DNA of 64,000 bases from Alphaproteobacteria bacterium (GCA_965221125.1 CBDCRW010000004.1:992001-1056000), one strand, 5' to 3'. Shown: positions 27,390 through 63,988, counted from the stretch's first letter. Notes: generated by a model not told the origin, from the sequence alone. Numbers and translations: made by a program.

Positions 27390-27464
27390 TTGAGTTTTTC
27401 TCAACGATGTTCGACATTTTCTCAATAATTGAGTATTTCTCAGGTGTTGTTGAGTTTAATTCGC
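27390..27464. promoter_or_regulatory. Array of four LysR-type boxes (TTGAG-N5-CTCAA)
   Basis: ttgagtttttctcaa 27390, tcgacattttctcaa 27411, ttgagtatttctcag 27429, ttgagtttaattcgc 27450; core fits T-N11-A; lies in the divergent lysR/tadG gap. Confidence 0.8.
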
Positions 27465-27592
27465 TTGCAACTTTGCCCCGCTCGTGTATTTGGTGAGCCC
27501 TGCACATAAATATCGGGGCACCTTACGACATGGTTGCGGGCTGCCTTCGCCGCGTCACGCGAACGAGCGCTGTCATCATCCAGCCGGCCGGC

Positions 27593-29224
27593 ATGCGCTT
27601 GCGAATCTCGAACTTCCTTCGCGATATCCGGGGCGGAGCCACGTCGTTCGCTGCGATCTTTATCGCCGTGATGACGGTTGGCGCAGCTGCACTTATCGTC
27701 GACCACAACTGGCTCGTCGATCAGCGCGACACGTTGAAGTACGCCTCGGACGCCGCGGCGATCGCGGCAACCATTGAGATGACGCGGCCGGGGGTCCAGA
27801 GCAAGAACGATATCGAGTTGAAAGCTCATCTCAGACAGGTCGCCGAGGGCCATGCGTTGCTTAACCTTTCGCACTTGTCCGGGGACCGGCTCAAGACGGC
27901 GAAGGACAGCTTGGACGTGAAGGTCGAGCCGTATCGCGACTCGAACACCGTGGACGTAACCGTCTCGGCGGATCTCGGCGGCACGCTCTTCTCGCGCCAC
28001 CTTCCGATCATGGGCAATAGCAAGGGGCCCGAGAAGGTCCGGGTGGACGCCAGGGTGGAGGGCACGAGCGATCCCGTCGAAGTGGTGCTCGCCATCGATA
28101 TCAGCAAGTCCATGCAGTGGACGTTGGACGCGAAGCGACCCAAAGCAGGCGAGAGCGCCAGTCGTATGGAAATCGTGAAGGGGGCGGCAAAGTCACTGGT
28201 GGATATCCTGGGCCCCAACGCTGAGAACCGGATAGCCGTGGGCCTGGTCCCCTGGCAGGCCCAAGTGCGTCTCGACAGCGCCACCCGGGTCAAGTGGTCG
28301 ACTGAGGGTTGGGCGGCGCGCCCGATTAGTCGCTACTACGGTGCAAAATATGGCTGCAAACCTCTGGGAACTTGTCGCGCGCAGAAGGAGACCCGGGTCC
28401 TGCCGCGCGCACCTCAAACAGAAGAGTGGAGTGGTTGCCTGGACGAGCACCGTGTCGACGGTGGACTCGCGAATCTGCCAGCCAAGACTGACTACAAGAC
28501 TGACCTTATAAGCCTCCCCGGAAAAAGTGCGTTTGCTCAGGGAATCTACGCTTCGCATTACGCCTACGGCATCGATTGCCCGCAGCGTCCCCTGCCGCAG
28601 GATTTCAACTGGCAATACTGTTATGGCACCAGCACGATAACTGGAGACGACGCCTGGAATATTATCCCAGTTGGTCCCCAGTATCTCTGTGAGAACGACC
28701 CTGGGTCCATTCTCCCGCTGACTACGGATGCATCGGGCCTCGTGTCCGCAATCGAAAACCTCAAGCCGGTCGGATCCGGCACCTACTCTGCGTTGGGCTT
28801 GCTGTGGGGGCAACGGCTTCTCACCCACAGCTGGAAAGACGTCTGGGGCGATAGCGTCCATCCTGTGGATCCGGAAGCGGAGGGGAGCACCGGCGCGCGC
28901 AAGGCGATCGTGCTTCTTACTGACGGCGAGGACTCCCAGTGTAGCCTACGTGATCCGACATGCGACAAGACTGACGTCGGCATCGCCCGAGAGGACGCGT
29001 GCGAGCATGTGAAGGCTGCCGGGATCGAAATCTTCGTCATCGCCGCAATGCAACCGGACAAGGTGTCTGAAACGCTGGGAAAGTCGTTGAGCGCTTGCTC
29101 GAGCCAGAAGCCCGACGACCCCAACAGCAAGTATGTGTTCCTTAACAACACGACCCCTGAAGACTTGGAAACAGCGTTCGCAGATATCGCGAACCAGCTC
29201 AAGGTATTCCGGCGCGTCTACTGA
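27593..29224 (+). CDS. TadG-like pilus-associated protein with vWA domain
   Basis: Pilin-like N-terminal helix (DIRGGATSFAAIF...DAAAIAA), MIDAS DISKS, KAIVLLTDGE, AFADIA; many Cys. Confidence 0.88.
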   Translation: MRLRISNFLRDIRGGATSFAAIFIAVMTVGAAALIVDHNWLVDQRDTLKYASDAAAIAATIEMTRPGVQSKNDIELKAHLRQVAEGHALLNLSHLSGDRLKTAKDSLDVKVEPYRDSNTVDVTVSADLGGTLFSRHLPIMGNSKGPEKVRVDARVEGTSDPVEVVLAIDISKSMQWTLDAKRPKAGESASRMEIVKGAAKSLVDILGPNAENRIAVGLVPWQAQVRLDSATRVKWSTEGWAARPISRYYGAKYGCKPLGTCRAQKETRVLPRAPQTEEWSGCLDEHRVDGGLANLPAKTDYKTDLISLPGKSAFAQGIYASHYAYGIDCPQRPLPQDFNWQYCYGTSTITGDDAWNIIPVGPQYLCENDPGSILPLTTDASGLVSAIENLKPVGSGTYSALGLLWGQRLLTHSWKDVWGDSVHPVDPEAEGSTGARKAIVLLTDGEDSQCSLRDPTCDKTDVGIAREDACEHVKAAGIEIFVIAAMQPDKVSETLGKSLSACSSQKPDDPNSKYVFLNNTTPEDLETAFADIANQLKVFRRVY

Positions 29225-29332: not shown

Positions 29333-30538
29333 TCAGTCCGGAATCCGGCCCAGTTGCGAGAGATCCGGAGGCCGTTCGACCAGGTATTCGTAGACGGCCA
29401 TGCTGCAGGTCGCCCACCAGCCGCCCTCCGCACCCGTGGCGCGGCTTGCGGCCACCTCTACCCCACGGTTCAAACCCTCCTCTACGGTCTCCTTGATTGC
29501 AGCCATGTAGGAGGGCGCCAACGCGAGAGGGCCGGCCACCACCACCATCTCGGGCCTCACGAAGTTTCCGTACTGTACGACGAGGCGGCCGAGCTCGCGT
29601 CCGGCGCGGGTCATCTGCGCAGCGACCGGCGGGTCTCCCGCCCGGTCACGCTCGATGGTATCGCCGAGGGCGTCATTGAGTGCCGAGAGCGGCAATCGAG
29701 CCAGGCTGCCGCCTTGCAGACGGCGAAGGATGCCAAGGCCGCTGGCATGATCGTCCAGTGTCCCTTCGGTGCCGTCCTCTCCGATCACCGTCATCATGCC
29801 AATCCCGCCGGTAGGAAAGCCGCTGCTGTCGACCACGCGCCCGTCAATCAGCACCGCCGCACCGATTCCCGATCCGCACAGCAGCCCGAGCACATTGCGC
29901 CGCCCCCGTGCCACACCGAAAAGCATCTCCACCCGGGCGACGCTGTCCGTAAACATTCGCACCTGCATCGGCACATTGAGCAGATCGGCAAGCTGTGCCC
30001 GTATCGGCACGGGCCCCCATCCGAGATAGGGACAGTGCGTGATGCTTCCTCGCGCGGAATCCAGCACGGCCGTAACCATGAGGAGGCCGCCGAAAAGACG
30101 GCTGCGATCCTCAAGATGCACGCCGATCATGCGCCGGCTCTCCTGCGCAATCTTCCGGATGACCCTGTCTGGGTCCTCAATGGGCTCGATGGTGAACTCG
30201 GAGCCGGCGATGATGTTCCCCCCGATGTCCGACAGCGCCACGGTCTGGATCACTGGCGTGATGGCGATACCGAGCACCTGCCCGCCTTGCGGGTCGATCT
30301 TCAGGGGTTGGAAGCGCCGGCCTCTCGTCGATGGCCGCGCGCCAGGCGCTTCCATTTCCTCCTGCGCCAGACCGGAGTCGATCAGCGCACGGGCTGTGCG
30401 CGAAATCGTCGACGGGTCCATCTCAAGCCGGGACGCGATGCGCCTTCGTGTTACCGGTCCCGTCAGCAGGACTTCCCTGAGGGTCGCTCGCAAGGCCCCG
30501 CCGACCGTACCGCCGGGGTTCGGTTGTTCATCCGCCAT
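29333..30538 (-). CDS. ROK family transcriptional regulator
   Basis: N-terminal HTH (TRRRIASRLEMDPSTISR, STRGRR), GSGIGAAVLIDG, GGIGMM; metal-binding Cys motif absent. Confidence 0.88.
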   Translation of the reverse strand: MADEQPNPGGTVGGALRATLREVLLTGPVTRRRIASRLEMDPSTISRTARALIDSGLAQEEMEAPGARPSTRGRRFQPLKIDPQGGQVLGIAITPVIQTVALSDIGGNIIAGSEFTIEPIEDPDRVIRKIAQESRRMIGVHLEDRSRLFGGLLMVTAVLDSARGSITHCPYLGWGPVPIRAQLADLLNVPMQVRMFTDSVARVEMLFGVARGRRNVLGLLCGSGIGAAVLIDGRVVDSSGFPTGGIGMMTVIGEDGTEGTLDDHASGLGILRRLQGGSLARLPLSALNDALGDTIERDRAGDPPVAAQMTRAGRELGRLVVQYGNFVRPEMVVVAGPLALAPSYMAAIKETVEEGLNRGVEVAASRATGAEGGWWATCSMAVYEYLVERPPDLSQLGRIPD

Positions 30539-31484
30539 GTGAAAGGTTCCTACCGGCGCGGCCGCTTATCCGCGTGACTCTGCCCCCCCCCCCCCCCCGA
30601 GGGAAGCAGGCTGCGAACTCGCCCTTGATCCATTCGCGGAATGCCTGGACTTCGGGCCGATTGTGAGCGGCTCTGTCCATCAACAGACCGTAGCTTTCCT
30701 CGACCCTCATGCTCTCGGCAATCGGGCGCACGAGCCGGCCCGAGGCGAGGTCGTCAAGAGCCATCGCGTCGTTGGCGAGCATGACGCCCTTGCCTCTGCG
30801 TACGGCATCGAGCAGCAAGGCGGGGGTCAGACGAGGGCCGTCTCTCAACTCTGAGCTGTCCAGGCCCACGGCCTCGATGAACTCCGGCCAGCCGGGCCAT
30901 CCCCAAGAATTCCCGACGGTCTCATAGTGCAGAAGGGTAGCCCCGGCCAGACCGTCGCGTCCACAGATTCCGGGGCAGCAAACGGGAAACACCTTCTCGG
31001 CGGCACTTAGGCGCTCGGCGATCACGCTCGGACCCTCTTCCAGACGTCCCCACGAGATGACGAGGTCGATGCTCCTTGTCGTGCCCATCTTCTCGGCCGA
31101 ATCGATGAGAATGATCTCGGTGTCCGGTCTCTGCTCGCTGAACCTGTCGAGTCGCGGCAGCAGCCAGCAAGAAGCGAACATCGGTGGCACCATGGCGCGC
31201 AGCCTGGCACCGCGCGCCGGCCGCTTGAGGCGGTCGATGGCCTCGTCGATGCAGGAAAAGACATCCTCAAGCCCTTTTTCGAGCTCTCTGCCGTCCGCGG
31301 TGAGTCGCATGCAGCGTCCGTCCCGGACAAGGAGGGCCAGGCCGACGTTCTCCTCGAGGCTCTTGATCTGGCGGCTGACGGCGCCGGGCGTAACGCCGAG
31401 CTCGCGGGCTGCGGCGGTTACGGAGAGGGTTTGCGCGACGGCGTGGAAGGCTCTGAGGGCGTTGAGCGAGGTCGTCGTCGTCAT
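30528..31484 (-). CDS. LysR family regulator (GcvA-like), paralog of 26198-27112
   Basis: SLNALRAFHAVA...ARELGVTPGAVSRQIKSLE; PPMFASCWLLPR; DDLASGRLVRP. Confidence 0.93.
   Translation of the reverse strand: MTTTTSLNALRAFHAVAQTLSVTAAARELGVTPGAVSRQIKSLEENVGLALLVRDGRCMRLTADGRELEKGLEDVFSCIDEAIDRLKRPARGARLRAMVPPMFASCWLLPRLDRFSEQRPDTEIILIDSAEKMGTTRSIDLVISWGRLEEGPSVIAERLSAAEKVFPVCCPGICGRDGLAGATLLHYETVGNSWGWPGWPEFIEAVGLDSSELRDGPRLTPALLLDAVRRGKGVMLANDAMALDDLASGRLVRPIAESMRVEESYGLLMDRAAHNRPEVQAFREWIKGEFAACFPRGGGGGRVTRISGRAGRNLSHGG
30583..30598. repeat. C16 homopolymer in the LysR 3' end
   Basis: 16 consecutive C, encoding the RGGGGG tail. Confidence 0.9.
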
Positions 31485-31684: not shown

Positions 31685-32302
31685 ATGAACGCCAGTCCAG
31701 TCGACAGTCTCCGGGAGACCGGTGGGAACGCCAAGGTAAGGCGGACCGCAGCCGAGTCTGCCTGTTCACGGCTGCATTTTCATGCGCCTGCGGGTCTGCT
31801 GCGGAGCCTGCATTCCTTTCTTTGCGCGCGCGGCGGTGGCGGCGCCATCGAGTCGGCGATCGCGATTGCGGTGCTGGTCACGGTCTTCGCCGGCCTCATG
31901 GCGATCGCTCATGCCGCCTACGAGGACGACAGGATGGGCCGTGCGGCGCGTGCGGCCGCCCGCGCCGTAGCCCTTGTGACCGATACCACGGCGTCCCAGC
32001 CCACGCTGGACGCGGTCGCCTGCACGGCGATCAAGAACGAGCTCGCCCTCGTCGACGGCTTCGACTGCAAGACGTGGGACGTCACGGTGAAAGCCGGCCT
32101 GACGGCGTCTGCGCTCTCAACCGGCCTGACGGCGTCTGCGCTCTCAAGCGGCGCCAACACCGCGGGCAACAGCGGCGACATGATCCTGGTCACGATCGAC
32201 GGTTGGGAGCGGGCGCCCTGGGTGACGGAGGTGCGGAAGCTCGACGACCCGGAAGGCCGAGTCGCCACAGGCGTCGCCCGCCGCGAGCCGACGGACACGT
32301 GA
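31685..32302 (+). CDS. TadE-like pseudopilin
   Basis: RGGGGAIESAIAIAVLVTVFAGLM...AARAAARA; contains a 27-bp tandem duplication at 32094-32147. True start may be downstream. Confidence 0.8.
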   Translation: MNASPVDSLRETGGNAKVRRTAAESACSRLHFHAPAGLLRSLHSFLCARGGGGAIESAIAIAVLVTVFAGLMAIAHAAYEDDRMGRAARAAARAVALVTDTTASQPTLDAVACTAIKNELALVDGFDCKTWDVTVKAGLTASALSTGLTASALSSGANTAGNSGDMILVTIDGWERAPWVTEVRKLDDPEGRVATGVARREPTDT

Positions 32303-32488: not shown

Positions 32489-33163
32489 GTGAAATTCCTC
32501 CCTTCGGCGTTCGGGCGCAACCGGCACAGGGCATGGCGGCCACGGCCTGAGTCCCCTGCCACACTCATCGGGCGCCTAGTTCGCGAGCGGCGGGCGGCGG
32601 CATCGATCGAGCTTGCCTTGGGCGTAGTGGCGATCCTGACCGTCGCATGGGTCGCCTTCGATGTCTATTCGCTGACCCGGGCCCACGCGGCGGGCGAGCG
32701 CATCGCCGCCATCATGGCCAACTATGTCTCGCAGGAAGCGACGCCCGACGGCGGCGAGATCACGGCTCTCGGCAAGTTTCTGCGCGAGAGCGAACTCCGC
32801 GTTCCGTCGTCGCTAGTATACCTGATTTCCGCGGTACATCTTGAGGACGATTCTGCCGAGCAACTCTGGGCCCCCTCCTCCTACGAGATCCGCCTCGGCG
32901 ACGACGACGACGAAACGGCGTCTCTGGTTCAGACATGCAAGAGCCGGGGGAAGAGCGGCTGGCAGGCGCAGGCGCTCGGGGCCGATGCCACCCTCGCGCT
33001 CCAGCCCACCGATGTGGTGATCGTCGTCGAGATCTGCGCGAGCCTGAACCGCGAAGGCATGCTCAGCGAGTCGGTGGCCGGCAACCTTTACCGCGTCCAC
33101 GCCCTGCTTGCCCGCGGTACCGGGGGCAAGCCCGCAAGGCCGACCGAGCCTTCGACCAGCTAA
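32489..33163 (+). CDS. TadE/TadF-like pseudopilin
   Basis: RERRAAASIELALGVVAILTVAWVAFDVY N-terminal helix; DVVIVVEIC. Start ambiguous because of the poly-G tract. Confidence 0.8.
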   Translation: MKFLPSAFGRNRHRAWRPRPESPATLIGRLVRERRAAASIELALGVVAILTVAWVAFDVYSLTRAHAAGERIAAIMANYVSQEATPDGGEITALGKFLRESELRVPSSLVYLISAVHLEDDSAEQLWAPSSYEIRLGDDDDETASLVQTCKSRGKSGWQAQALGADATLALQPTDVVIVVEICASLNREGMLSESVAGNLYRVHALLARGTGGKPARPTEPSTS

Positions 33164-33506: not shown

Positions 33507-33737
33507 ATGAAAGTGAAGAACTTCCTGCGGGCTGTTGCCCGCTTCGCACGGGCCAAGGAGGCCGTGTCGGCGCTCGAGTACGCCGTCGTTGTCAGCGTCG
33601 TCGTCGCCGGAGTCGGCGGGGCCGTGTGGGCGTTCGTGGGCGATACGCAAACCGCGATCGAATCAATCGGCACCGCAGTTGAGACGACGGCAAGTACGGC
33701 CCCGACGGGCACATTGACAGCGCCCACCTCACCCTAA
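33507..33737 (+). CDS. flp: Flp family type IVb pilin
   Basis: 76 aa; AAGGAG RBS; ARFARAKEA/VSALEYAVVVSVVVAGV Flp motif. Confidence 0.9.
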   Translation: MKVKNFLRAVARFARAKEAVSALEYAVVVSVVVAGVGGAVWAFVGDTQTAIESIGTAVETTASTAPTGTLTAPTSP

Positions 33738-34221: not shown

Positions 34222-34689
34222 ATGAGCGAGTGGGGAATTCACGGAGCCAGAGCGGCGTTCCAAGGAATCGTGGAGGACCTGATGAGAACGTTGCTGGAGG
34301 AGCATCCCACGCTGCTCGGTGAGATGGACCTGTCGAACCTGATGGATGCCGGCTACTGCAAGGACGTCCTCGAGCTGAATATCGCGAACTTCGCGCTGAT
34401 TCGGCGCCGGGAGCAGGGCCACATGATCCAGGGCCACGCCCGGTATTGGAAGCACGTGTACGCCGGTGAGTTCTACGTGTGTTCGCAATGGTGGAAGGAC
34501 CATCACCGCTCCAATGCCGCCGCCCTGGCGAGGTTCGCGGCAAGCCTTGCCGGGATGCGGCCGCAGCATCCGGGCGCCCCTGACCTTCTGCGGCACATCG
34601 AGTCGCTTGAGCGCTATGCCGCCAGCGAAGACCCGTCCTTCCCGGATGGGCGCCAGGCGAACTCGCTGGGCCTGGCTCACAATGGCTGA
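34222..34689 (+). CDS. Hypothetical protein (155 aa)
   Basis: Protein-like composition with aromatic motif RYWKHVYAGEFYVCSQWW; co-oriented with the tad genes. Confidence 0.6.
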   Translation: MSEWGIHGARAAFQGIVEDLMRTLLEEHPTLLGEMDLSNLMDAGYCKDVLELNIANFALIRRREQGHMIQGHARYWKHVYAGEFYVCSQWWKDHHRSNAAALARFAASLAGMRPQHPGAPDLLRHIESLERYAASEDPSFPDGRQANSLGLAHNG

Positions 34690-54041: not shown

Positions 54042-55127
54042 ATGACCAGGATTGCCACGGCCCTCGTGGCCGTCGCGGTATTGGCGGGAGTCCTGTTGTC
54101 TGCCGCCGCAGCGGTCGCCGACACCCTCGACCGCGCGCTCACGCTCGCCGCCGAGGGACGCTATCCGGAGGCACGGCGGGTTCTCGATCCCCTGCTGGAT
54201 AACGAGCCGGGCAACGCGCAGCTGCGGCTGCTGCACGGGGTCCTTCGAGTGCAGGAGGGACACAGGGGCGAAGCGATCGCCGTCTTCTCCGGACTCGCGC
54301 GGGAGTTCCCCGACATGTTCGAGGCGCACAACAATCTCGCGGTGCTCTACGTGGACGAAGGCCGGCTGGAAGAGGCGCGGGCGGTCCTGGCGGCAATTCT
54401 GGAACGGCGCCCGGAGGCCGTGGGCTACCGCAACCTGGGCGAAGTCTACGAGAAGCTTGCGAGGCGTGCCTATGCGCAGAGCCGTGCGCTCCGCGACGAC
54501 AGGTCCAGGGATGGAGATGACGACGGCGACTCCGGCACGGAGGTCCTGCAGGCGAGCGATGCGGCCGGTACCGTCTCCGAGCCTGCGACCGCGTTGGAGC
54601 CGGCATCCGGCAGCGAGCCGCCCGCGGTTCCCGAAAGGCCGGCGCCGGCCGAGGAGGCGATCGCGGCGGCCTGCCTGGCGACGGGGGAGTTCCTGGACAT
54701 GGGCACTGTCGAGGAAGCACGGCTGTGGCTGGCGGCGCTCGGCGCGGAAGCAACGCGTGTCTCGAGCGGCACTCGCGAGAGAGTCAAGGACTACCGTGTC
54801 TACCTGCCGCCCTTCGAGAGCCGCAAGGCTGCCGACGCGGCGCTCGGGGATCTGAGCGAGAAGGGCGTGAGCGACATTGCGGTGATTCCAAAGGGTGCCA
54901 GGAAGAACGCCGTCTCTCTGGGCATTTACGCCAAAGAGGCGAACGCGTCGCGGCGGGTGGCACGGTTGGAGGAGCTCGGCTACGCGCCCGTGGTGGAGCC
55001 CAATTCCATGGCGGTCGAAGAGCACGCCACGATCAAGGCGCGCCTTCCCGGCGGCTTCGAGGACCTGCGCGATGCCTGGGCGTCGAGTTTCCCTGACCAC
55101 GCTGTGCGGCAGGTGGAATGTGACTGA
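54042..55127 (+). CDS. Exported TPR + SPOR-like domain protein
   Basis: GGAGG RBS, signal peptide, TPR (EAHNNLAVLYVDEGRLEEARAVL), SPOR-like YRVYLPPFESRKAA...SLGIYAKEANASRR. Confidence 0.8.
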   Translation: MTRIATALVAVAVLAGVLLSAAAAVADTLDRALTLAAEGRYPEARRVLDPLLDNEPGNAQLRLLHGVLRVQEGHRGEAIAVFSGLAREFPDMFEAHNNLAVLYVDEGRLEEARAVLAAILERRPEAVGYRNLGEVYEKLARRAYAQSRALRDDRSRDGDDDGDSGTEVLQASDAAGTVSEPATALEPASGSEPPAVPERPAPAEEAIAAACLATGEFLDMGTVEEARLWLAALGAEATRVSSGTRERVKDYRVYLPPFESRKAADAALGDLSEKGVSDIAVIPKGARKNAVSLGIYAKEANASRRVARLEELGYAPVVEPNSMAVEEHATIKARLPGGFEDLRDAWASSFPDHAVRQVECD

Positions 55128-58100
55128 ACTCCCCGCCAGGAAATCGTCCCGGAGCCCGATCATGAATACGGCACACACCGACAGATATCCGGTCCCGGCC
55201 AAACCCGGGCAACCCCGAGCGCGCTTTTCGGTTTCGCCGTTCGAAGCCATCCGGCGCGCCGCGGCGATGGCTGCCGTTCTGTTCTCTCTTTCGGCCTGCT
55301 GGGGACTGTCCGGGGAGAGCCGCTCGCCAGGAGGCGAGCAGCTGCTGCAGAGCAACCTGTCGGTCGCATCCGCCGCGCTCGCGGCCGGCCAGCCGGCGGT
55401 TGCGCACAAGCTCTATCTGGCGCTCGCCGAGCGCTTCGACGACGCGCCCGAGCCGGTCCTCGGGCTTGGCTACATCGCCCTGCAGACGGAGAGGCCCGGC
55501 GAGGCCGGCGACCACTTCAGACGGGCCGCGAAGCTGTCGGACGATGCGCCCGGCTTGCGGGCGGAGGCGCTGCTCGGTGCCGCCCGCGCATCCCTGGCGC
55601 AGGGCGACAGCTCTGCCGCACGGCACCACCTGGCGGCAGCACGCGACCTTGCGGAGGATTCCTCGACGATCGCCTGGATCGAGAACGGCCTGGCCGTCGC
55701 TGCGGTCTTCGAGGAAGACTACCGGACCGCCGAGGCCCACTACGCAAGCGCTCTCCGCCAGCCGTCCGCCCATCCCCGCATAGCAGCCAACTTCATCCGC
55801 ATGCTCATCGCGTCCGGGCGCATCGACGTGGCGGAGCGCACGTACGGGGCCTACGCAACGTCCTATTGGGATGAAGGCGACCGGCATGCCTTGCAGAACC
55901 TGATCGGCGAGGCGAGGCGCCTGTCGCCGCCGCCCAACCGCTTCGATCCGCGCCTTCTGTTGCGGCTGACTGAGATGAAGGCGCTCCCTGACCCGGCGGA
56001 CGCCCCAGCGTACCCCGCAGACGGCGGCCTGCGCACCGGCCCGGAGGGACCCGTGCTGACGATCGGGGGCCGCTTGTTCCCGGCTACACCGGCGACGATG
56101 GCCGCGAGGCCCGCGGCGACACCGGCAGCACCCGTCCTGTCCGAACCGCCACTGGAAGAGACAGCAGATCCCGTCCCGACCTCCAAGCGAAGCGCGCCCG
56201 AATACCAGCCCTCTGTTGGGGAGCGCGGGTCGCCGCGGGCTGCAATCCCCGCCCTCGCGGCTGCACTTCCCCGCGAGGTCCCAGCGTCGTCAGTCACTCG
56301 ATCCGGCTCCTCTTCGTGGTCCGACGTACTCGTGCTGCGCATCGATCCTGAGGGCACATCACGCGAAGGAATATTGGAAGTCGATGCGCCGGTCGAAGGC
56401 CCACCTTCAGCGACATCTACCGATGAGCGGCCACCGGGCAATGCGGAGACCGATGCGGTGCCGGTGGAGGACGTACTTCCAATTGACGGCGCGCTCCGCA
56501 GCGGTTTGGTGCTGGTTGTGGCGTCCTCGCATGCTCAGGTCTCGCCCGGCTCCGCCGTGCCGGACTTCGACGCGGCCACGAGCACACCGGGGGCGCCCCC
56601 GCAGGTCCACGAACCCGGGGCGGTCCAGGCCGCCGGCATCCCTTCCGCAACCGCCGGGGTCGAGCAACAGGCGCACCGATTGGAGGCCGACCCGGTGCAG
56701 TCCGCTAACGCGCTTCTCTTGACCGTTTCCCCCCACGACGGTCCGCCACTGCGGGACAACGCGTCCCTGCGGGCCCCGTCTTCATCGGCCTCCCTCTCGC
56801 GCGAAGCCGGAGCGACCAGCGCAACACTCAAGAGTGAAGCACCCGAGGGTGCACCGCCCGAGGGCGCATCACACGTCGCGGCGGCACAGGCTTCGGGCCT
56901 GCAGTTGGCCACGATCGAAGGCGCGGGCGGAACGCACCGGTCCGAACCCGGCCCGACGCTGGTCGTAAACGTAGCGATCCTGAACGACTACTCGAACTAC
57001 GACCCGTTTTCCGCTGCACCTGCCGCCCATCGTCCCTTCCTGCTCGCCTCCGCCTCTTCGCCGTACATCGACCCGTTGTGGGAATCGGTGTGGATGCCGA
57101 AAGGGAGCGGAGCGGGCTTTCATACCTTTGCGGCGGTTGAATCGGAGAGCCACGACGACTGGCTTCCGCAGGTTGCCGAGACGGCACCGCCGGAGCCGGC
57201 TCGGAGCGACGAATGGACAGTTCTGCTGGGAACGGGCCACAGGCTCACTCTTGGCGTCGACGCTGCGGCGGTCGCGATTGCGTCTCCCGAGATTGCCGAC
57301 GTCCAGCTGCTTACGCCTCGGGTTCTGTTCGTCATGGGGCGGAACCTGGGCCGTACCACCGTCTCGGTACTCGGCGAGGACGGGTCCGTATTCGAGCGGG
57401 ACGTGTCGGTCGTTCTGGATATTGAGCCCCTGCGCGCGCTGTTGGCCGGAGAGCCCGGCCTGCAAGGGGTGCAGGTGGAAAGCCTCACCCGCGGCGTTGC
57501 CCTGGCCGGGGATGTCGACTCGCAAGAGGCGGCGGATCGGGCGCTCGGTCTCGCGACGGTATCGCTCCCCGAAGGCACTCTGGTCGAGAACAACCTCGAC
57601 GTCGGGTTGGATCTGGAGCCGTTGCGGGCCCTCCTCGCGGGCGAGCCCGGCTTCGCCGATGTTGCGGTCAAACGGGTCGGCCGGGGCGTGGCGCTCACCG
57701 GCGAGGTCGCCTCGGCAGAGTCCGCCGACCGGGCGCGTCGGCTGGCCTTGACCGCGGTTCCGGAAGGCCTCCCGGTGGAGAATAACCTTCGGGTGATTAT
57801 CGACATCGAGCCTCTTCGTACGGTTCTGGCCGCAAAGCCGGGGCTCGATCGAGTTCAGGTACAGCGTCTGGCCCGCGGTGTGGCACTTGCAGGCGAGGTG
57901 GACACACCGGAGGCTGCCGACCGCGCCCTTCGTCTGGCCGCAGCCTCTCTGCCGGAAGGCGTGCTGGTGGAGAATAATCTGAACCTGATCCTCGATCTCT
58001 TGCCGCTGAAGGCGCTCCTTGCTGCCGAGACCGGACTGGCCCACGTTCATGTGCGGCAGGTGGCTTGGGGTGTCGCTCTGGCCGGCGAAGTCGCTTCGGC

Positions 58101-61100
58101 GCGGTCCGCCGACTTGGCGCATCGGCTTGCGGTCGCCTCTCTCCCTGAGAGCGTGCCGGTGGAGAACAACCTGCGGGTGGTGGACCTTGAGCCGCTGCGC
58201 GCTGTTCTGGCCGGGGAGGCCGGCCTGCGAGGCGTGCGCGTGGAGAGCCTGACGCACGAGGTCGCACTTGTGGGCGAAGTCGCCTCGCCGGCTCTGGTGG
58301 ACCTGGCGGTCCGTCTCGCCGCCGACTTTCTACCGGAGAGCGTACCGGTGGAGAACAACCTGCGGGTAGTGGACCTTTCGCCGCTGCGCGTGCTTCTGGC
58401 GGGCGAGCCCGGACTTGGAGGCGTTGAGGTCCGCCGGCTCGGTCGGGGCGTGGCGCTCGCCGGTGAGGTTGCCTCGGCAGAAACATCCGAAAGGGCGCAC
58501 AGCCTCGCCTTGGTCACGCTTCCAGAAGACCTGCCGGTCGAGAACAACCTTCGAATCGTGTTCGACACCGGGCCCCTGCTCGAGATCCTGGCGGGCGAGC
58601 CCGGTCTCGAGCGGGTGCGGGTGCAGCGTCTCGCCCGGGGAGTCGCTCTGTCGGGCTACGTCGATTCGCCAGTTGCGGCTGAGCGCGCGCGCGGTCTGGC
58701 TTCCGCGTCTCTCCCGGAAGGCTTGGCGGTGCAAGACAATCTGACCGTAGGCCTGGGCCTTGAGCCGCTTCGTGAACTCCCGGCCGGCGAGCCCGGCCTG
58801 GACGATCTCGCGCCGCTGCGCGTCTTCATCACCGAGGAACCTGGCCTAGAGGGCGTCGTGGTGCGGCGCGTCGGCCGCGGCGTCGCGCTGACGGGCGAGG
58901 TGGCTTCGGTAGAGGATGCCGAAAGGGCACGGCGGCTGGTCGTGGCCGCTTTGCCGGAGACCGTTCCGGTGGAGAACAACCTGCGCGTGGTGCCGGACAT
59001 CGAGCCCCTGACCACCGTCTTCGCTTCGGAGCCCGGACTGGAAGGCGTGCAGGTGAAACGCCTCCCACGTGGCGTCGCCCTCGCGGGGCACGTCGACTCG
59101 CAGGAGGGGGCGGACCGGGCGCTCGGTCTCGCGACGGCGTCGCTCCCGGAGAACACGCTGATCGAGAACAACCTCGACATCGGGCTGGACCTGGGGCCGC
59201 TGCGGGCGCTGCTCGCGGGCGAGTCCGGCTTCGCCGATGTCGAAGTCCAGCGGGTCGGCAGGGGCATAGCGCTCACCGGCGAGGTCGCTTCGCCGGAGGT
59301 TGCCGATCGCGCACACCGGCTTGCCGCAGCCTCGCTACCGGAAACCGTTCCGGTAGAAAACAGCCTGCGTGTCGAGTTCGATATTGTGCCGCTGCGTGTG
59401 CTTCTGGCCGGAGAAGCCGGTCTGGAACGCGTGCAGGTGCAGCGGCTTGCCCGGGGCGTGGCCCTGTCAGGCTACGTCGAGTCGCCGGCCGCGGCGGAGC
59501 GCGCGCTCGGTCTGGCCTCCGCATCTCTTCCGGAAGGCTTGCTTGTCGAGGACAATCTGACCGCAGGCCTTGGTCTCGAGCCGCTTCGTGCACTCCTGGC
59601 CGGCGAGCCCGGTCTGGACGACCTCTCGCCGCTGCGCGCTTTCATAGCCGGCGAGCCCGGTCTCGAGGGCGTCGAGGTGCAGCGGGTCGGCCGGGGCGTG
59701 GCGCTCACCGGCGAGGTCGCTTCGGCAGAGGATGCCGAAAGGGCACGTCGCCTTGCCGTGGCGGCTCTCCCGGAGGGCGTTCCGGTGGAGAACAACCTGC
59801 GGGTGGTGTTCGACATCGTGCCTCTGCGTGTGCTTCTGGCCGGAGAAGCAGGCCTGGATCGCGTGCATGTCCAGCGGCTCGCCCGGGGGGTGGCCCTTGC
59901 GGGCTACGTCGGCTCACCTGCGGCGGAAGACCGCGCGCTTCGGCTTGCCGCCGCCTCCCTGCCGGAAGGCCTGCTGATCGAGAACAACCTGGACGTGGGG
60001 CTGGACCTCGATCCGCTGCGCGTACTGCTGATCGGCGAGCCCGGCCTCGATAGCGTCGCGGCACGGCGCGTGGGCCGGGGCGTGGCGCTCACCGGCGAGG
60101 TCGCTTCGGCGGACGCTGCCGATCGGGCACATCGGCTTGCAGTGGCCTCGCTCCCCGAGAACCTGCTGGTGGAGAACAACCTGCGCGTGCAGTTCGACAT
60201 CGAGCCCCTGCGCGCTGTCCTGGCGGCCGAGCCGGGCCTGGAAGGGATCCAGGTGCGGCAGCTCGCGCGAGGCGTGGCGCTCGCCGGCGAGGTCGCCTCG
60301 CCGGAGGCCGCAGATCGGGCCTCTCGGCTAGCCGCCGCCTCTCTGCCGGAAGGCCTGATCGTGGAGAACAACCTTGAGGTGGGTCTGGACCTGGAGCCTT
60401 TGCGCGCTCTCATGTCGGGCGAGAGCGGTCTCGAAGGCGTCGAGGTGAGGCGCATCGGCCGGGGCGTGGCGCTCACGGGCGAGGTCGCTTCGGCAGACGC
60501 TGCCGATCGGGCGCACCGTCTGGCAGTGGCCTCCCTTCCCGAGAGCCTCCTGGTGGAGAACAACCTGCGCGTGCAGTTCGACATCGAGCCGCTTCGCACT
60601 GTCCTCGCTGCGGAGCCCGGCCTGGAGCAAGTCCGCGTACAGCGGCTAGCGCGAGGCGTGGCGCTTGCCGGCGAGGTCGCCTCGCCGGAGGCCGCGGACC
60701 GGGCGCACCGTCTGGCCGTTGCCTCACTGCCGGGTGGCCTGCTGGTCGAGAACAATATGAGCGTGGTTCTGGACCTCGTGCCGCTCCAGGCGCTCATGGC
60801 CGGCGAGTCCGGCCTGAAGGGAGTCGAGGTGCAGCGGGTCGGCCAGGGCGTGGCGCTCACGGGCGAGGTCGCTTCGGCAGAGGCGTCCGACCGGGCGTAC
60901 CGTCTGATCGCAGCCTCTCTCCCCGACAGCCTGCCGGTGGAGAACAACCTTCGGGTGGTGTTCGACATCGGTCCGTTGCGCGCGGTTCTGGCCGGCGAGC
61001 CCGAACTGGACCGCATCCAGGTGCAGGAGCTGGGCAGAGGCGTCGTGCTGACCGGCGAGGTCGCTTCGGCGGAGGCGTCGGACCGGGCACACCGGATCGC

Positions 61101-63288
61101 CACGGCGTCGCTCCCGGAAGGCGTGCCGGTGGAGAACAGCCTGCGCGTGGTCCCGGACATCGAACACCTGCGCGCGGCCCTGGCCGGCGAACCCGGACTG
61201 GATCGCGTTCAGGTTCAGCGGCTCGCGCGCGGCGTGGCGCTTTCCGGCGACGTCGACTCGCATGCGGCGGAAGGCCGCGCACTCCGGCTGGCGGCAGCCT
61301 CACTTCCGGAAGGCGTGCCGGTGGAGAACAACCTGCACGTGGGACTGGACCTCGCGCCTCTGCGCTCGCTGGTGGCCGGCGAGCGCGGTCTGAAGGACGT
61401 TCGTGTGCAGCGGACAGGCCGCGGTGTTGCGCTCATCGGCGAGGTGGGTTCGGCCGAGGCGTCCGATCAGGCCTCCCGCCTCGCGGCCGCGCTTCTCCCG
61501 GAAGACATGCCTGTCGAGAACAACCTGCGCGTGGTGTGGGACGTGGAGCCGCTGCGCGCGCTTCTGGCCGGATCGCCCGATCTGGAACGCGTGCAGGTTC
61601 AGCGCCTTGCGCGTGGCGTCGTGCTCAGCGGGGATGTCGACTCGCATGCGACGGCCGACCTGGCGCTTCGCCTGGCTGCGGCATCCGTGCCGGAAGGCGT
61701 TCTGGTGGAGAACAACCTGAACGTGCGACTGGACCTGGCGCCACTGCGGGTGCTCATTGCAGGTGTACCGGACTTGCGCAACGTCCGGGTGAAACGGATC
61801 GGACGGGGCGTGGCGCTCTCGGGCGAGGTGGGCTCGGCGGAAGCGTCAGATAGGGCACTTCGGCTCGCCGTGGCCTCGCTGCCCGAGGGTATTGCGGTCG
61901 AGAACGGCCTGCGCATAGCGCCGGATGTCGAACCGCTGCGGGCGCTCCTGGCCGGGGAACCCGGTCTTGAGCGGGTGCACGTGCAGAAACTCGCGCGTGG
62001 CGTCGCGCTGGCCGGCGATGTCGCTTCGCCGAAAGCCGCAGACCGGGCGCTGCGTCTTGCCGCCGCTTCCCTGCCCGAAGGCATGCTGGTGGAAGACAAC
62101 CTGAACGTCGGGTTGAATCTTGCGCCTCTCGAAGCGCTCATGGTTGCGGAGGAGGGCTTCGAGAGCATCCGCCTCAACCGGATCGACCGAGGCGTGGCGC
62201 TGACCGGCGAGGTGGGGTCGCAGACGGAAGCGGAACGTGCTGCCCGTCTTGCGGCTGCCACGCTCCCTGAGGACGCTCTGGTCGAGAACAACCTGCGCGT
62301 GGTGCTGGATTCCGGACCTCTTCGTGCGGCCCTTGCGGGTGATCCGGAGTTCGACCGCGTCCACGTGCGCGATCTTGGGCATGGCGTATCGCTGAGCGGC
62401 GAGGTCAGCTCGGCTGCGGCCGCCGATCGGGCGCACCGACTTGCCGCCGTTTCGCTGCCTGCGGACACGCTGGTGGAGAACAACCTGCGCATCGCCGGGC
62501 CCCTGCAGGTGAACCTGGAGGTGCAGATCGCGGAGGTGCAGCGCTCCATCGCCGAGGAATTCGGGTTCAACTGGGAGCTCTTCGGACGTTCTGCCGAGGG
62601 GGATCTGGGAGGCAGCTTCCGGATCGGACGGCAGAACAGGACCGAGCAAGCCATGGTGGACGGATTGCCGTCGCCGTCCCTCATTCTATCGAGAACGTGG
62701 GAAGAGATCGGCATTACCGGCATGGTCGATGCACTTGCGAAAGCGGGCCTTGCTAACGTGCTGGCCCGGCCCAACGTCACCGCCAACTCGGGCGAGACCG
62801 CGTCCTTCTTCTCGGGTGGTGAGTTTCCGCTGCCGTCCGGCTTCAAGGACGGGGTGATCGTCTTCGAGTACAAGAAGTACGGTGTCGTTCTGGACTTCGT
62901 ACCGACGATCGTTGACGACGGCAGGGTCGAGCTTACGGTTCGTCCCGAGGTTTCCGAGCCCTCGCAGGATAACTCGGTGCAGGTTGCCGGCGGCGTCAAC
63001 GTCCCCGTGATCAACGTGCGCCGTGCCGAGACTACCGTCGAGATGGGCGACGGCGAGTCGATCGTGATCGCAGGGCTCTTCAGCAGCACCTCGAACGAAG
63101 TGCAGTCGGGGGTGCCGGTGCTCAAGGATCTGCCGCTGCTCGGTGCGATGTTCGGACACACCTCGACCCGGGCGGACGAGCTGGAGCTGATCGTCACCGT
63201 GACCGCCCGCCTGGTGCAGGCCGGGCCCGCGCCGGGCGACGCGATCACGGCCGGATCCGGACAAGCCAACAACAGTTACTACTACTGA
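55120..63288 (+). CDS. Giant CpaC/RcpA secretin: TadD-like TPR lipoprotein + linker + pilus N-domain + 26 BON-like repeats + secretin domain
   Basis: Lipobox LSAC (Cys at 55297); TPRs; N-domain AVAIASPEIADVQLL...GRTTV (~57211-57420); repeats 57421-62500; secretin QVNLEVQIAEV, SGETASFFSGGEFP, GVPVLKDLPLLGAMF. Start uncertain (GTG 55120, ATG 55162 or ATG 55267). Confidence 0.9.
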   Translation: MTELPARKSSRSPIMNTAHTDRYPVPAKPGQPRARFSVSPFEAIRRAAAMAAVLFSLSACWGLSGESRSPGGEQLLQSNLSVASAALAAGQPAVAHKLYLALAERFDDAPEPVLGLGYIALQTERPGEAGDHFRRAAKLSDDAPGLRAEALLGAARASLAQGDSSAARHHLAAARDLAEDSSTIAWIENGLAVAAVFEEDYRTAEAHYASALRQPSAHPRIAANFIRMLIASGRIDVAERTYGAYATSYWDEGDRHALQNLIGEARRLSPPPNRFDPRLLLRLTEMKALPDPADAPAYPADGGLRTGPEGPVLTIGGRLFPATPATMAARPAATPAAPVLSEPPLEETADPVPTSKRSAPEYQPSVGERGSPRAAIPALAAALPREVPASSVTRSGSSSWSDVLVLRIDPEGTSREGILEVDAPVEGPPSATSTDERPPGNAETDAVPVEDVLPIDGALRSGLVLVVASSHAQVSPGSAVPDFDAATSTPGAPPQVHEPGAVQAAGIPSATAGVEQQAHRLEADPVQSANALLLTVSPHDGPPLRDNASLRAPSSSASLSREAGATSATLKSEAPEGAPPEGASHVAAAQASGLQLATIEGAGGTHRSEPGPTLVVNVAILNDYSNYDPFSAAPAAHRPFLLASASSPYIDPLWESVWMPKGSGAGFHTFAAVESESHDDWLPQVAETAPPEPARSDEWTVLLGTGHRLTLGVDAAAVAIASPEIADVQLLTPRVLFVMGRNLGRTTVSVLGEDGSVFERDVSVVLDIEPLRALLAGEPGLQGVQVESLTRGVALAGDVDSQEAADRALGLATVSLPEGTLVENNLDVGLDLEPLRALLAGEPGFADVAVKRVGRGVALTGEVASAESADRARRLALTAVPEGLPVENNLRVIIDIEPLRTVLAAKPGLDRVQVQRLARGVALAGEVDTPEAADRALRLAAASLPEGVLVENNLNLILDLLPLKALLAAETGLAHVHVRQVAWGVALAGEVASARSADLAHRLAVASLPESVPVENNLRVVDLEPLRAVLAGEAGLRGVRVESLTHEVALVGEVASPALVDLAVRLAADFLPESVPVENNLRVVDLSPLRVLLAGEPGLGGVEVRRLGRGVALAGEVASAETSERAHSLALVTLPEDLPVENNLRIVFDTGPLLEILAGEPGLERVRVQRLARGVALSGYVDSPVAAERARGLASASLPEGLAVQDNLTVGLGLEPLRELPAGEPGLDDLAPLRVFITEEPGLEGVVVRRVGRGVALTGEVASVEDAERARRLVVAALPETVPVENNLRVVPDIEPLTTVFASEPGLEGVQVKRLPRGVALAGHVDSQEGADRALGLATASLPENTLIENNLDIGLDLGPLRALLAGESGFADVEVQRVGRGIALTGEVASPEVADRAHRLAAASLPETVPVENSLRVEFDIVPLRVLLAGEAGLERVQVQRLARGVALSGYVESPAAAERALGLASASLPEGLLVEDNLTAGLGLEPLRALLAGEPGLDDLSPLRAFIAGEPGLEGVEVQRVGRGVALTGEVASAEDAERARRLAVAALPEGVPVENNLRVVFDIVPLRVLLAGEAGLDRVHVQRLARGVALAGYVGSPAAEDRALRLAAASLPEGLLIENNLDVGLDLDPLRVLLIGEPGLDSVAARRVGRGVALTGEVASADAADRAHRLAVASLPENLLVENNLRVQFDIEPLRAVLAAEPGLEGIQVRQLARGVALAGEVASPEAADRASRLAAASLPEGLIVENNLEVGLDLEPLRALMSGESGLEGVEVRRIGRGVALTGEVASADAADRAHRLAVASLPESLLVENNLRVQFDIEPLRTVLAAEPGLEQVRVQRLARGVALAGEVASPEAADRAHRLAVASLPGGLLVENNMSVVLDLVPLQALMAGESGLKGVEVQRVGQGVALTGEVASAEASDRAYRLIAASLPDSLPVENNLRVVFDIGPLRAVLAGEPELDRIQVQELGRGVVLTGEVASAEASDRAHRIATASLPEGVPVENSLRVVPDIEHLRAALAGEPGLDRVQVQRLARGVALSGDVDSHAAEGRALRLAAASLPEGVPVENNLHVGLDLAPLRSLVAGERGLKDVRVQRTGRGVALIGEVGSAEASDQASRLAAALLPEDMPVENNLRVVWDVEPLRALLAGSPDLERVQVQRLARGVVLSGDVDSHATADLALRLAAASVPEGVLVENNLNVRLDLAPLRVLIAGVPDLRNVRVKRIGRGVALSGEVGSAEASDRALRLAVASLPEGIAVENGLRIAPDVEPLRALLAGEPGLERVHVQKLARGVALAGDVASPKAADRALRLAAASLPEGMLVEDNLNVGLNLAPLEALMVAEEGFESIRLNRIDRGVALTGEVGSQTEAERAARLAAATLPEDALVENNLRVVLDSGPLRAALAGDPEFDRVHVRDLGHGVSLSGEVSSAAAADRAHRLAAVSLPADTLVENNLRIAGPLQVNLEVQIAEVQRSIAEEFGFNWELFGRSAEGDLGGSFRIGRQNRTEQAMVDGLPSPSLILSRTWEEIGITGMVDALAKAGLANVLARPNVTANSGETASFFSGGEFPLPSGFKDGVIVFEYKKYGVVLDFVPTIVDDGRVELTVRPEVSEPSQDNSVQVAGGVNVPVINVRRAETTVEMGDGESIVIAGLFSSTSNEVQSGVPVLKDLPLLGAMFGHTSTRADELELIVTVTARLVQAGPAPGDAITAGSGQANNSYYY
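57421..62500 (+). repeat. 26 diverged ~192-bp (64-aa) tandem repeats
   Basis: Consensus EPLRALLAGEPGLxxVxVxRxxRGVALxGEVASxxAADRAxRLAxASLPExxxVENNLxVxxD, counted by hand. Confidence 0.93.
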
Positions 63289-63328
63289 GGACGGTGCCGC
63301 CGTGCAGTTTCTCCTCCTGGAGTACGCA

Positions 63329-63988
63329 ATGAGGAACACGCGCCCGATAGATGTCCCCGCTTCGCGGGAGAGAGATGCAGCCGCCCCCGCGGTGGCCTCG
63401 ACTCCTGCCGCAAACCATCCTGCCGGGACGCGTCTCCGCAATGCGGCCGTGCCAGATCCGAATGCCGGCTCAATTCCGGCGGGCTTCCTCTCCCTCCGCG
63501 GCGATATCCCGGATGGAGAGCGCCCGCCTGACCGACGCAACGCAGGAAACATTGTCGTGCCCGACCTCCCGACCCGCAGCCGTCCAGCCGCCATCACCGC
63601 CGCCCTGTGTGTCGTCGTCGTTCTCGGCGGCTGCCAGGAGCGGCTGGCGCAACGCGATACCTACTTCGCTCCCCTGCGCGGCTTGAGCGCCTCTCTGCAT
63701 GCGGAGACGGAGCACGTGCTGGATTATCATCAGGCCATGCAGGCCGCGCTGCATGGATGCAGCAAGAGCCAGCGCGCGACTGCAACACCGAGCGTCATGG
63801 GGCCGGCGAACGTGGTGCCGGAGGGAGCGTTGGATCCCGACGCGCAGGCGCGGCTCTGCGCATCCTCCGGGATCACGCATGCTACGCACGGGGCGCCGTT
63901 GAACGGCTACCGGCGTTGGGTGGGAGACCAGGTCCGCGAGTTGCCCGCGCCGTCCGAGACGGCCTCCTCGATCGGAGGCGGCTCTTGA
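63329..63988 (+). CDS. Putative lipoprotein in the CpaD position downstream of the secretin
   Basis: Lipobox VVVLGGC; C-terminal YRRWVGDQVRELP reminiscent of CpaD-related tails. Start uncertain. Confidence 0.55.
   Translation: MRNTRPIDVPASRERDAAAPAVASTPAANHPAGTRLRNAAVPDPNAGSIPAGFLSLRGDIPDGERPPDRRNAGNIVVPDLPTRSRPAAITAALCVVVVLGGCQERLAQRDTYFAPLRGLSASLHAETEHVLDYHQAMQAALHGCSKSQRATATPSVMGPANVVPEGALDPDAQARLCASSGITHATHGAPLNGYRRWVGDQVRELPAPSETASSIGGGS

Follow-up and report, generated by a model that had tools for sequence, protein, structure and literature searches.

A lineage-restricted Tad/Flp pilus locus with a giant secretin carrying 26 tandem BON units

The window analysed here is a 64,000-nucleotide stretch from Alphaproteobacteria bacterium (GCA_965221125.1, CBDCRW010000004.1:992001-1056000; positions are counted from its first letter), in which a complete Tad/Flp gene set spans 27530-63988. 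We conclude with high confidence that this locus is a real, conserved and lineage-restricted variant of the Tad/Flp (type IVc) pilus. Its parts are already known, and the new element is the architecture of its secretin, in which a single BON/ring-building-type domain, found between the N-domain and the pore of ordinary relatives, has been amplified to 26 tandem units. An earlier reading of the sequence (the original prediction) had put the locus forward as an oversized and undescribed Tad machine. No description of multi-BON or giant Tad secretins was found in the literature searched, most subscription journals lying outside its coverage.

Raw lists of open reading frames (ORFs) were crowded with shadow frames because the G+C content of the window is 62-71%, and the gene map was fixed by codon-position GC together with family searches (Pfam, NCBIfam and PDB sequence searches). 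The Tad parts lie on the plus strand without exception, as predicted, and the three genes singled out as enlarged encode 2708 (secretin), 1417 (CpaE) and 976 (CpaB-TadB) residues, their frames being coding by codon-position GC through all three extensions. The locus runs past the window's end on the same contig, where CpaE2 (384 residues) is followed by an SNase-like protein, a 330-residue protein, an outer-membrane protein (OMP) beta-barrel and an AMIN-amidase. It comprises two modules. Module A (pilins, CpaE1, CpaF, CpaB-TadB, TadC, a MauG-like di-haem enzyme and a DAHL kinase) would supply filament, motor and inner-membrane platform, and module B (CpaA, CpaB2, a 602-residue protein, a TPR-SPOR protein, the secretin and a lipoprotein, with CpaE2, the SNase-like protein, the OMP barrel and the amidase past the window) would form the envelope-crossing part.

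The giant secretin and its BON array

The secretin gene (55162-63288, plus strand) encodes a lipobox (LSAC, residues 43-46) and a TPR domain (~50-340), both of them conserved, an Ala/Ser/Pro-rich region (340-684), an N-domain (684-750), 26 BON units (749-2442) and the secretin domain (~2443-2708), with the C-terminus ...NSYYY. Pfam matches were BON (E 3.8e-110, 13 stretches), Secretin (E 1.9e-40), T2SS-T3SS_pil_N (E 7.3e-13) and TPR. The best solved relative of the pore domain was P. aeruginosa RcpA (8odn, E 3.8e-37), by which similarity the protein is assigned an RcpA-type pore; its N-terminus is a lipoprotein TPR domain. When this TPR domain was compared with solved structures by profile search, only generic TPR matches were obtained (PilF E 0.019); PilF and PilW matched weakly, and TadD itself did not match. 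A start giving a 2797-residue ORF was rejected, as its first 89 codons lie inside the better-supported frame of the TPR-SPOR gene, and the ATG at 55162 is the likely start. No second secretin was found in the window's genome (assembly 92% complete), which leaves the Tad set without an alternative pore.

The BON array (57406-62487, plus strand; counted with a unit hidden Markov model (HMM) and Tandem Repeats Finder) consists of units of 63-64 residues. End-to-end spacing was 63-64 residues in 23 of the 25 steps, and the two remaining spacings are 80 residues owing to 16-residue partial duplications before units 8 and 12. Mean pairwise identity between units was 60%, with units two apart more alike (66%) than neighbours (57%), which indicates a two-unit super-repeat; Tandem Repeats Finder reported periods of 192 and 384 nucleotides. 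The amplification ran in a two-unit register. Units compared with one another gave a ratio of non-synonymous to synonymous divergence (dN/dS) of 0.20-0.45, and comparison with an 84%-identical orthologue (L012) gave 0.24, so that the array is under purifying selection; one near-identical pair of units gave 1.2, from very few changes. Synonymous divergence (dS) among the paralogous units was 0.46-1.07, and the duplications are therefore old.

The units fit the BON family model (PF04972) in sequence and in predicted fold. A four-unit AF2 model, built with an alignment of 45 four-unit windows from this secretin and related proteins, had a pLDDT of 89.6 and a pTM of 0.59. Each unit was predicted as alpha-beta-beta-alpha-beta, with the last strand continuing into the next unit. 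The nearest folds in a Foldseek search were the type III secretion system (T3SS) proteins YscD, CdsD and PrgH (E 1.8e-8 to 1e-3), alongside OsmY and DolP, and BonA was also matched. The YscD, CdsD and PrgH domains form stacked periplasmic rings. These best or near-best matches (4alz, E 1.8e-8; 4qq0, 4qo6, 7ah9) share the tandem alpha-beta-beta-alpha-beta arrangement; the matched chains, however, are ~190-220 residues long, presumably three BON-like domains, and belong to an inner-membrane protein, whereas here 26 units belong to a secretin. The low TM-scores (0.23-0.28) indicate that the arrangement of the domains differs from that in the T3SS proteins. With DolP, OsmY and BonA the array shares the BON family, a two-domain periodicity and a lipoprotein context, but those are small stand-alone two-domain proteins outside any secretin.

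The closest characterised counterpart is the P. aeruginosa RcpA-TadD complex (8odn; PMC10499894) with its RcpC ring (PMC12307814); the secretin match, the pil_N N-domain and the CpaB/RcpC partner are common to both systems, and a TPR lipoprotein element accompanies the secretin in both. In these sources RcpA extends to about residue 416 with a single N-domain, against 2708 residues here, and TadD is a separate protein, whereas the TPR lipoprotein is here fused to the N-terminus of the secretin. The 26 BON units between N-domain and pore are a further difference from RcpA.

Contigs assembled from two sponge-metagenome runs of two other studies tile the secretin piecewise (0.8-2.4 kb each), with differences of ~1-4%. 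In those contigs no supported joint that skips repeats was seen, the joints reported having sides of only ~20 letters. No listed independent contig bridges ~59.7-60.9 kb, which holds the most similar units (14-17), and the unit count there comes from the present assembly; short-read contigs cannot fix the exact number of BON units. Intact secretin frames of 2344-3411 residues were present in four other assemblies, with 20, 27, 28 and 36 near-complete units. The secretin frame is split in two further relatives, into two frames in one (G005:C3, L033) and at least three in the other (G011:C3, L039), which could reflect frameshifts, decay or sequencing errors in the repeats.

Distribution and gene order among relatives

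Forty related genomes were searched along with the window's own, in a first look that was stricter than usual, so that the counts are a floor. Multi-BON homologues were found in at least 6 of the 20 other genomes of the same genus, and gene order and oversizing recur in those 6. The original prediction had named normal-sized separate genes in close relatives as evidence that would count against it; the relatives share the oversized genes instead. In genomes from outside the genus, matches were confined to the pore and N-domain, in frames of 209-971 residues, with one weak BON unit. Within it, the number of BON units per secretin ranged from 3 (G019) to ~41. A search of a collection of 5.8 billion proteins, restricted to lengths of 1489-4739 residues and with units counted by the BON unit HMM, returned 51 proteins, of which 42 carry 9-47 BON units. 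Where the C-terminal 459 residues agree at 88% identity or more, the number varied from 16 to 31, a spread part of which may stem from fragmentation or from collapse of repeats in short-read assemblies. The first BON unit starts at residue 646-853 in full-length homologues, i.e. the N-terminal part is constant in length. In one database protein (P0035), BON units and Secretin share a chain with SNase and He_PIG domains, which are encoded by separate genes here; a further fusion, or a read-through in gene calling, may explain it.

The other 9 of the 51 matches (P0046-P0054, 3426-4348 residues, from other metagenomes) are GspD-type secretins that likewise run to thousands of residues; their N-terminal parts, however, are unrelated (Secretin_N and other domains), they have 0 BON units, and their pore domains are 27-32% identical. 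Three of the nine are named as type II secretion system (T2SS) GspD by their source, and one is named as a protein of a Phycisphaerales metagenome-assembled genome (MAG). When a four-unit profile was run against 401 genomes drawn evenly from the class, two were matched, the window's own and one with a single weak match; the BON array was thus not found in the other 400 genomes sampled. Among named records, the nearest are MAGs that bear the titles Alphaproteobacteria bacterium, Rhodospirillales bacterium and "Bryobacterales bacterium".

The profile of the secretin's TPR domain was run against 1.84 billion representative proteins. From the 400 matches 10 were sampled, comprising 5 proteins of 673-722 residues with TPR, pil_N and Secretin, 3 TPR-SPOR proteins and 2 with TPR only. 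The fusion of a lipoprotein TPR domain to a secretin is therefore not new. The five ordinary TPR-secretins share the TPR domain (profile E down to 1e-74) and, after it, pil_N and Secretin, but have no BON array (Pfam, E <= 1e-4), and to this layout the window's protein adds ~1,700 residues of BON units. It is the BON amplification that is the new, lineage-specific step.

Gene order was compared by tblastn of 29 protein pieces against the loci of eight relatives. The recurring order begins with the LysR regulator (minus strand), TadE, the TadE-like protein, Flp, a 155-residue protein, CpaE1, CpaF, TadB with or without fused CpaB, TadC, the di-haem enzyme, the kinase and, in some loci, the Ig-like protein; it continues with CpaA, CpaB2, the 602-residue protein, TPR-SPOR, the secretin, the lipoprotein, CpaE2, SNase, the 330-residue protein, OMP and the amidase. 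This order was found in G015, G020, G005 (contig 3) and G011, and in the available parts of G008 and L012. In G019, a one-contig genome that is 99% complete, the 602-residue gene, TPR-SPOR, an intact secretin of 955 residues with 3 BON units, the lipoprotein and CpaE2 are kept (C1 ~2963500-2970600, L035/L036), and genome-wide no T2SSF, no T2SSE over the cut-off and no RcpC were found. A second locus in G005 consists of secretin, lipoprotein and CpaE2 only. The secretin module can thus persist without the motor. G008 likewise has no T2SSF in its genome; its locus begins at a contig end.

Near-identical DNA was present in sponge-metagenome runs of two studies and in marine-metagenome runs, and two of the sponge runs hold kilobase pieces at ~96-99% identity. 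These findings support an uncultured, sponge-associated alphaproteobacterium as the host lineage, in line with the host association suggested beforehand.

CpaE1, the CpaB-TadB fusion and the remaining genes

The giant CpaE/TadZ protein (CpaE1, 34825-39078, plus strand, 1417 residues) has a CpaE receiver-like and a MinD/ParA-type part at ~1041-1417; these C-terminal 377 residues matched receiver-like domains of CpaE (4n0p, E 6e-8; 4myr, E 1.2e-6) and, weakly, MinD/ArsA ATPases. Residues 1-1040 form an acidic low-complexity extension (208 D/E against 52 K/R), probably a disordered cytoplasmic tail. It contains the motifs LLR[DE]IAExPxVSSD (three copies) and VIHLPDLSG (two copies), both of which are kept in the tails of G005 and G020, otherwise 36-39% identical, while G015 has VIHLPDL alone. 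CpaE1 is extended in all five loci that hold the gene, with stop-free frames of 921-1682 residues in four relatives. CpaE2 (L026:2023-3177, on C4 of the genome just past the window's end) is of normal size (384 residues), ~34% identical to the C-terminal part of CpaE1, with weak CbiA/MeaB matches. Each relative's locus has CpaE2 after the lipoprotein of the secretin, so that every machine has two CpaE paralogues.

The CpaB-TadB gene (40487-43417, plus strand, 976 residues) joins RcpC (E 1.4e-19; TIGR03177 CpaB E 4.7e-36, above cut-off) and T2SSF (E 5.3e-15) in one coding frame, and the predicted inter-subunit fusion was thereby borne out. A membrane anchor (transmembrane (TM) segment 7-25) is followed by (PVRAA)x11, the CpaB domain, a linker of ~300 residues and TadB with its own N-terminal helix, a topology compatible with a periplasmic linker and a cytoplasmic T2SSF domain. 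The (PVRAA)x11 stretch after the anchor is encoded by a 15-nucleotide tandem repeat (40612-40793, 10.7 copies, 99% matches) and could be a length-variable spacer. In the linker, weak but patterned resemblance to BON units was found (tblastn against the arrays of relatives, down to E 3.8e-13), with matches to the BON unit HMM at 361-418 and 484-520, and one unit was detected in the G020 fusion too. A chance read-through was considered and rejected on the coding-type GC, the single frame kept in G015 and G020, and 12 fused database proteins; RcpC and T2SSF were joined in 12 of 26 database matches, all 12 of them relatives at 49-100% identity. Among the five loci with motor genes, the fusion is present in three (window, G015, G020) and absent in G005 and G011. 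The fused CpaB of G015 (C95, L027/L028) is 96% identical to the window's CpaB2 and 59% identical to the window's fused CpaB, which suggests gene conversion or independent re-fusion. T2SSF matches in the window's genome numbered exactly two, the fusion and TadC (43435-44430, plus strand, 331 residues, E 4e-16). The CpaF/TadA ATPase (39075-40490, plus strand, 471 residues; T2SSE E 1.6e-66) is 84-94% identical in relatives.

At the 5' end of the locus, a TadG-like minor pilin of 564 residues (27530-29224, plus strand) has Tad PF13400 at residues 35-80 (E 5.4e-4; 20.7 bits, below the 22.3 cut-off) and a C-terminal VWA domain (VWA_2 E 3.6e-6; 28 bits, cut-off 27). No copy of it was recovered from the available stretches of the relatives, which may end too early. 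Two regulators follow on the minus strand: a ROK-family gene (29333-30538, ROK E 3.2e-19), for which codon-position GC favours the minus strand slightly and whose upstream position is conserved in G005, and a LysR-type gene divergent from the pilin genes (30528-31484; HTH_1 E 8.7e-22, LysR_substrate E 3.5e-20), whose frame fits codon-position GC and which is syntenic in G005 and G015. The plus-strand pilin genes are a TadE-like pseudopilin (31685-32302, 205 residues; TadE PF07811 E 7.3e-4, below cut-off; syntenic in G005, G015 and G011), a second pseudopilin (32489-33163, 224 residues) and a Flp-like pilin (33507-33737, 76 residues). The second pseudopilin has no family match (Pfam, NCBIfam) and is taken to be TadE/F-like from its N-terminal hydrophobic segment of TadE type and its synteny. 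The Flp-like candidate likewise has no Flp family match (Pfam, NCBIfam); it was identified by coding frame, size, position and synteny (65-66% identical copies in the same place in G015 and G020) and contains ...SALEYAVVV..., which we take to be the Flp motif. The ORF at 34222-34689 (plus strand), previously labelled cpaA, is not a peptidase gene; it encodes a soluble protein of 155 residues without a TM segment or family match (Pfam, NCBIfam) that is 79-85% identical and syntenic in G005, G015 and G020. The prepilin peptidase CpaA/TadV lies instead at 50634-51119 (plus strand, 161 residues; Peptidase_A24 E 1.8e-14, frame by codon-position GC).

Non-Tad genes are interleaved with the Tad set as predicted, with the qualification that the ROK and LysR regulators inside the span are on the minus strand. 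The gene called a peroxidase (44405-45385, plus strand, 326 residues) does belong to the CCP/MauG family (CCP_MauG E 5.5e-59) but encodes rather a periplasmic MauG/MbnH-like di-haem enzyme, the top models being MbnH-family (E 9.6e-51) and MauG (E 4e-42), both below cut-off. It lies between the TadC and kinase genes also in G005, G011, G015 and G020. MauG-type enzymes modify proteins, and this one might conceivably act on a periplasmic protein, for example the pilin. The sensor anticipated for the system is a membrane histidine kinase with a DAHL extracytoplasmic domain (45388-47142, plus strand, 584 residues, two TM segments; DAHL E 2.1e-30, HATPase_c E 1.2e-18), with synteny kept in five relatives' loci; no response regulator was found in the scanned parts of the locus. 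The di-haem and kinase genes (44405-47142) are fixed between tadC and cpaA in relatives' loci. An Ig-like repeat lipoprotein of 1112 residues follows (47183-50521, plus strand; He_PIG E 6.2e-26 in 4 stretches, lipobox-like ...TAAC). It had been labelled an autotransporter adhesin, a label that found no support: no autotransporter family (Pfam, NCBIfam) was matched, although a diverged barrel is possible, and the beta-rich C-terminal third has no match among solved structures. The protein is a candidate surface protein; its gene is present in G005, G015 and G020, as a tail in G008, and absent from G011 and L012.

Within module B, the free CpaB/RcpC (CpaB2, 51138-52073, plus strand, 311 residues; RcpC E 6.7e-26, SAF E 9.7e-5, TM 7-25) precedes a conserved helical protein of 602 residues (52190-53998, plus strand), 63-98% identical and syntenic in seven relatives' loci including G019, always 5' of the TPR-SPOR and secretin genes. 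The latter protein had no match in Pfam or NCBIfam and no usable match in ESM Atlas, and its AF2 model, built with 7 homologues, had a pLDDT of 46.9. The predicted TPR-SPOR gene was recovered as a secreted protein of 361 residues from its ATG (54042-55127, plus strand; TPR_19 E 1.2e-14, SPOR E 2.7e-10), with a signal-like TM segment (signal peptide, 7-25) and synteny in relatives. A small lipoprotein (63302-63988, plus strand, 228-residue ORF, lipobox LGGC near residue 111) occupies the cpaD/rcpB position 3' of the secretin gene, as in 8 of 8 relatives' loci, and has no family match including CpaD (Pfam, NCBIfam).

Compared with the Caulobacter crescentus Cpa system, as described in bioRxiv 10.1101/2025.11.05.686773, module B keeps the order cpaA-cpaB-...-cpaC-lipoprotein-cpaE, and a ParA/MinD-type CpaE with receiver-like domain, CpaF, TadB and TadC are shared. 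Relative to that description, the present locus differs in having CpaE and CpaB twice, the acidic 1040-residue tail of CpaE1, one CpaB-TadB fusion, the interleaved MauG-like enzyme, DAHL kinase, Ig-like lipoprotein, 602-residue protein and TPR-SPOR protein, and a lipoprotein after the secretin without a detectable CpaD family match.

Contigs from the RNA library of one sponge run cover the di-haem gene, the kinase, cpaA, the end of TPR-SPOR and two stretches of BON units, differing from the window at 3-22 positions each; as DNA carry-over is possible, they point weakly to transcription. Flanking the locus at a distance of about 10 kb are, upstream (15775-17903), a Mu/Tn-type transposase (rve, Mu-transpos_C) with an AAA_22 ATPase partner and, downstream (L026:14240-19994, minus strand), a 1149-residue NACHT-like NTPase and a TraI/RecD-type helicase (AAA_30).

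Possible roles of the array

In other RcpA homologues the pore is preceded by an N3 domain (PMC10499894), and multiplication of the domain in that position is the simplest reading. The BON units may then build a periplasmic stalk or tube of variable length beneath the pore, a proposal to which we give slightly less than even weight. In a secretin of 13-14 subunits, the units would stack through their short fixed linkers into a long stalk or tube, unequal recombination would change its length by two rings per step, and the N-domain at its far end would dock on the CpaB ring, much as the N-domain of RcpA docks on an inner-membrane-anchored RcpC dodecamer (PMC12307814). CpaB-TadB would covalently join this alignment ring to the platform through a periplasmic linker with degenerate BON-like units. 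The acidic 1040-residue tail of CpaE1 with its two conserved motifs might act as a cytoplasmic brush around the motor, recruiting or excluding partners. The N-terminal lipoprotein TPR domain would take the TadD/PilF pilotin role in cis; the TPR groove of TadD binds C-terminal residues of RcpA (PMC10499894). We consider the whole, a lineage-specific Tad locus with a stalk- or tube-forming secretin and these associated roles, the best explanation, with the chances of its being right or wrong evenly divided. The nearest folds, those of the tandem BON-like domains that build periplasmic rings in YscD, CdsD and PrgH (T3SS), favour a ring-building role for the units, and amplification of a pre-existing domain is supported by the single unit outside the genus, the 3 in G019 and the 12-47 in the others, together with the constant length of the N-terminal part in full-length homologues.

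Several observations weigh against this explanation. The geometry between units is uncertain because of the low pTM of the four-unit model. With a ring height of ~3 nm, which we assume from other secretins, 26 rings are estimated to far exceed the usual periplasm. Proteins that match at 88% identity or more over the C-terminal 459 residues carry anywhere from 16 to 31 units, the N-terminal region is not longer where there are more units, and similar units in variable number are the pattern of flexible spacer arrays too. A strict ruler is weakened by the variable number, the constant N-terminal length and the implausible length of 26 rings. The motorless module of G019 and the second G005 locus indicate that the module is not strictly tied to the pilus motor, two loci (G005, G011) lack the CpaB-TadB fusion, and the TPR matches are generic, so that kinship with TadD is only weakly hinted.

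The same observations bear on the claim, made in the original prediction, that the enlargements reflect coordinated lengthening for an unusually wide envelope, which is not supported in that form. The enlargements are of unlike kinds, namely a folded periplasmic array, a cytoplasmic acidic tail and a periplasmic linker, and the argument from envelope width fails for CpaE1 because its extension is cytoplasmic. A fixed envelope ruler also fits poorly, as the number of BON units is 16-31 in proteins with at least 88% identity over the C-terminal 459 residues and 3 to ~41 within the genus. Moreover, the fusion is missing in 2 of 5 motor-bearing loci, and G019 keeps the secretin module without motor, platform or CpaB.

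The alternative that survives best is that the array is a flexible, bead-like periplasmic tether or skirt that binds phospholipid or envelope components and anchors the envelope at the pore, with unit number only loosely constrained; we regard it as possible, though well short of even in both respects. OsmY and DolP are among the top structural matches (8rjx, E 3.4e-7; 6xmv, E 4.6e-6), and the dual-BON protein DolP binds phospholipid (PMC7806268). The two-unit super-repeat resembles dual-BON proteins, close relatives differ strongly in unit number but not in the length of the N-terminal region, and conserved neighbours bind or cut peptidoglycan (TPR-SPOR, AMIN-amidase). On the other hand, the strict unit length and very short linkers imply a regular, fairly stiff array, and the BON units stand exactly at the site of the N3-type ring domain of other Tad secretins (PMC10499894).

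The secretin module (602-residue protein, TPR-SPOR, BON secretin, lipoprotein and CpaE2) might instead be a channel or envelope structure of its own that is sometimes coupled to Tad, with the oversizing serving that other role; we think both parts of this proposal improbable. It would account for G019, whose one-contig, 99%-complete genome has the module intact and no Tad ATPase, platform or CpaB, for the three-gene second copy in G005, and for G008, which lacks T2SSF although its locus begins at a contig end. Against this, module and motor genes form one same-strand block in the window's genome, G005 (contig 3), G011, G015 and G020, there is no other secretin for the Tad set, CpaA and CpaB2 are part of the module in most loci, and G019, with the shortest array, may be a decaying remnant. 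That repeat mis-assembly or chance open frames in G+C-rich DNA made the long genes is very improbable: the G+C content does yield many long spurious ORFs, ~59.7-60.9 kb is unbridged by the listed independent contigs and the frame is broken in two relatives (G005 contig 3 and G011), but the genes are coding throughout by codon-position GC, both ends of each long frame carry Pfam domains, intact frames occur in four other assemblies and arrays in 42 database proteins, dN/dS is well below 1 with paralogue dS of 0.46-1.07, and the window differs little from contigs of independent runs.

Returning to the stalk or tube, a bolder form of it is that the tube is tunable in length, with up to 47 near-identical rings, and spans a widened envelope or stands at the tip of an outer-membrane protrusion. 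We think this unlikely, as we do the accompanying suggestion that BON-derived spacers in CpaB-TadB lengthen the inner-membrane side to match. If true, a tunable tube would mean that sponge symbionts have trans-envelope machines built on a new structural principle.

Structures of secretins and Tad machines are being determined at high resolution, and to our knowledge all those described have just a few periplasmic domains, matched in size to an ordinary periplasm. With 26 ring-type domains here and up to 47 in relatives, the family raises the questions of how far a trans-envelope conduit can stretch and what sets its length, and because unit number differs among close relatives, it offers a natural length series in which to study them. 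Further leads for Tad biology are the covalent CpaB-TadB link, the acidic CpaE tail with its conserved motifs, and a MauG-like enzyme and kinase in the operon. The surface-attachment system is a trait of an uncultured, sponge-associated alphaproteobacterial genus, and as such is relevant to how sponge symbionts hold on to or sense their host.

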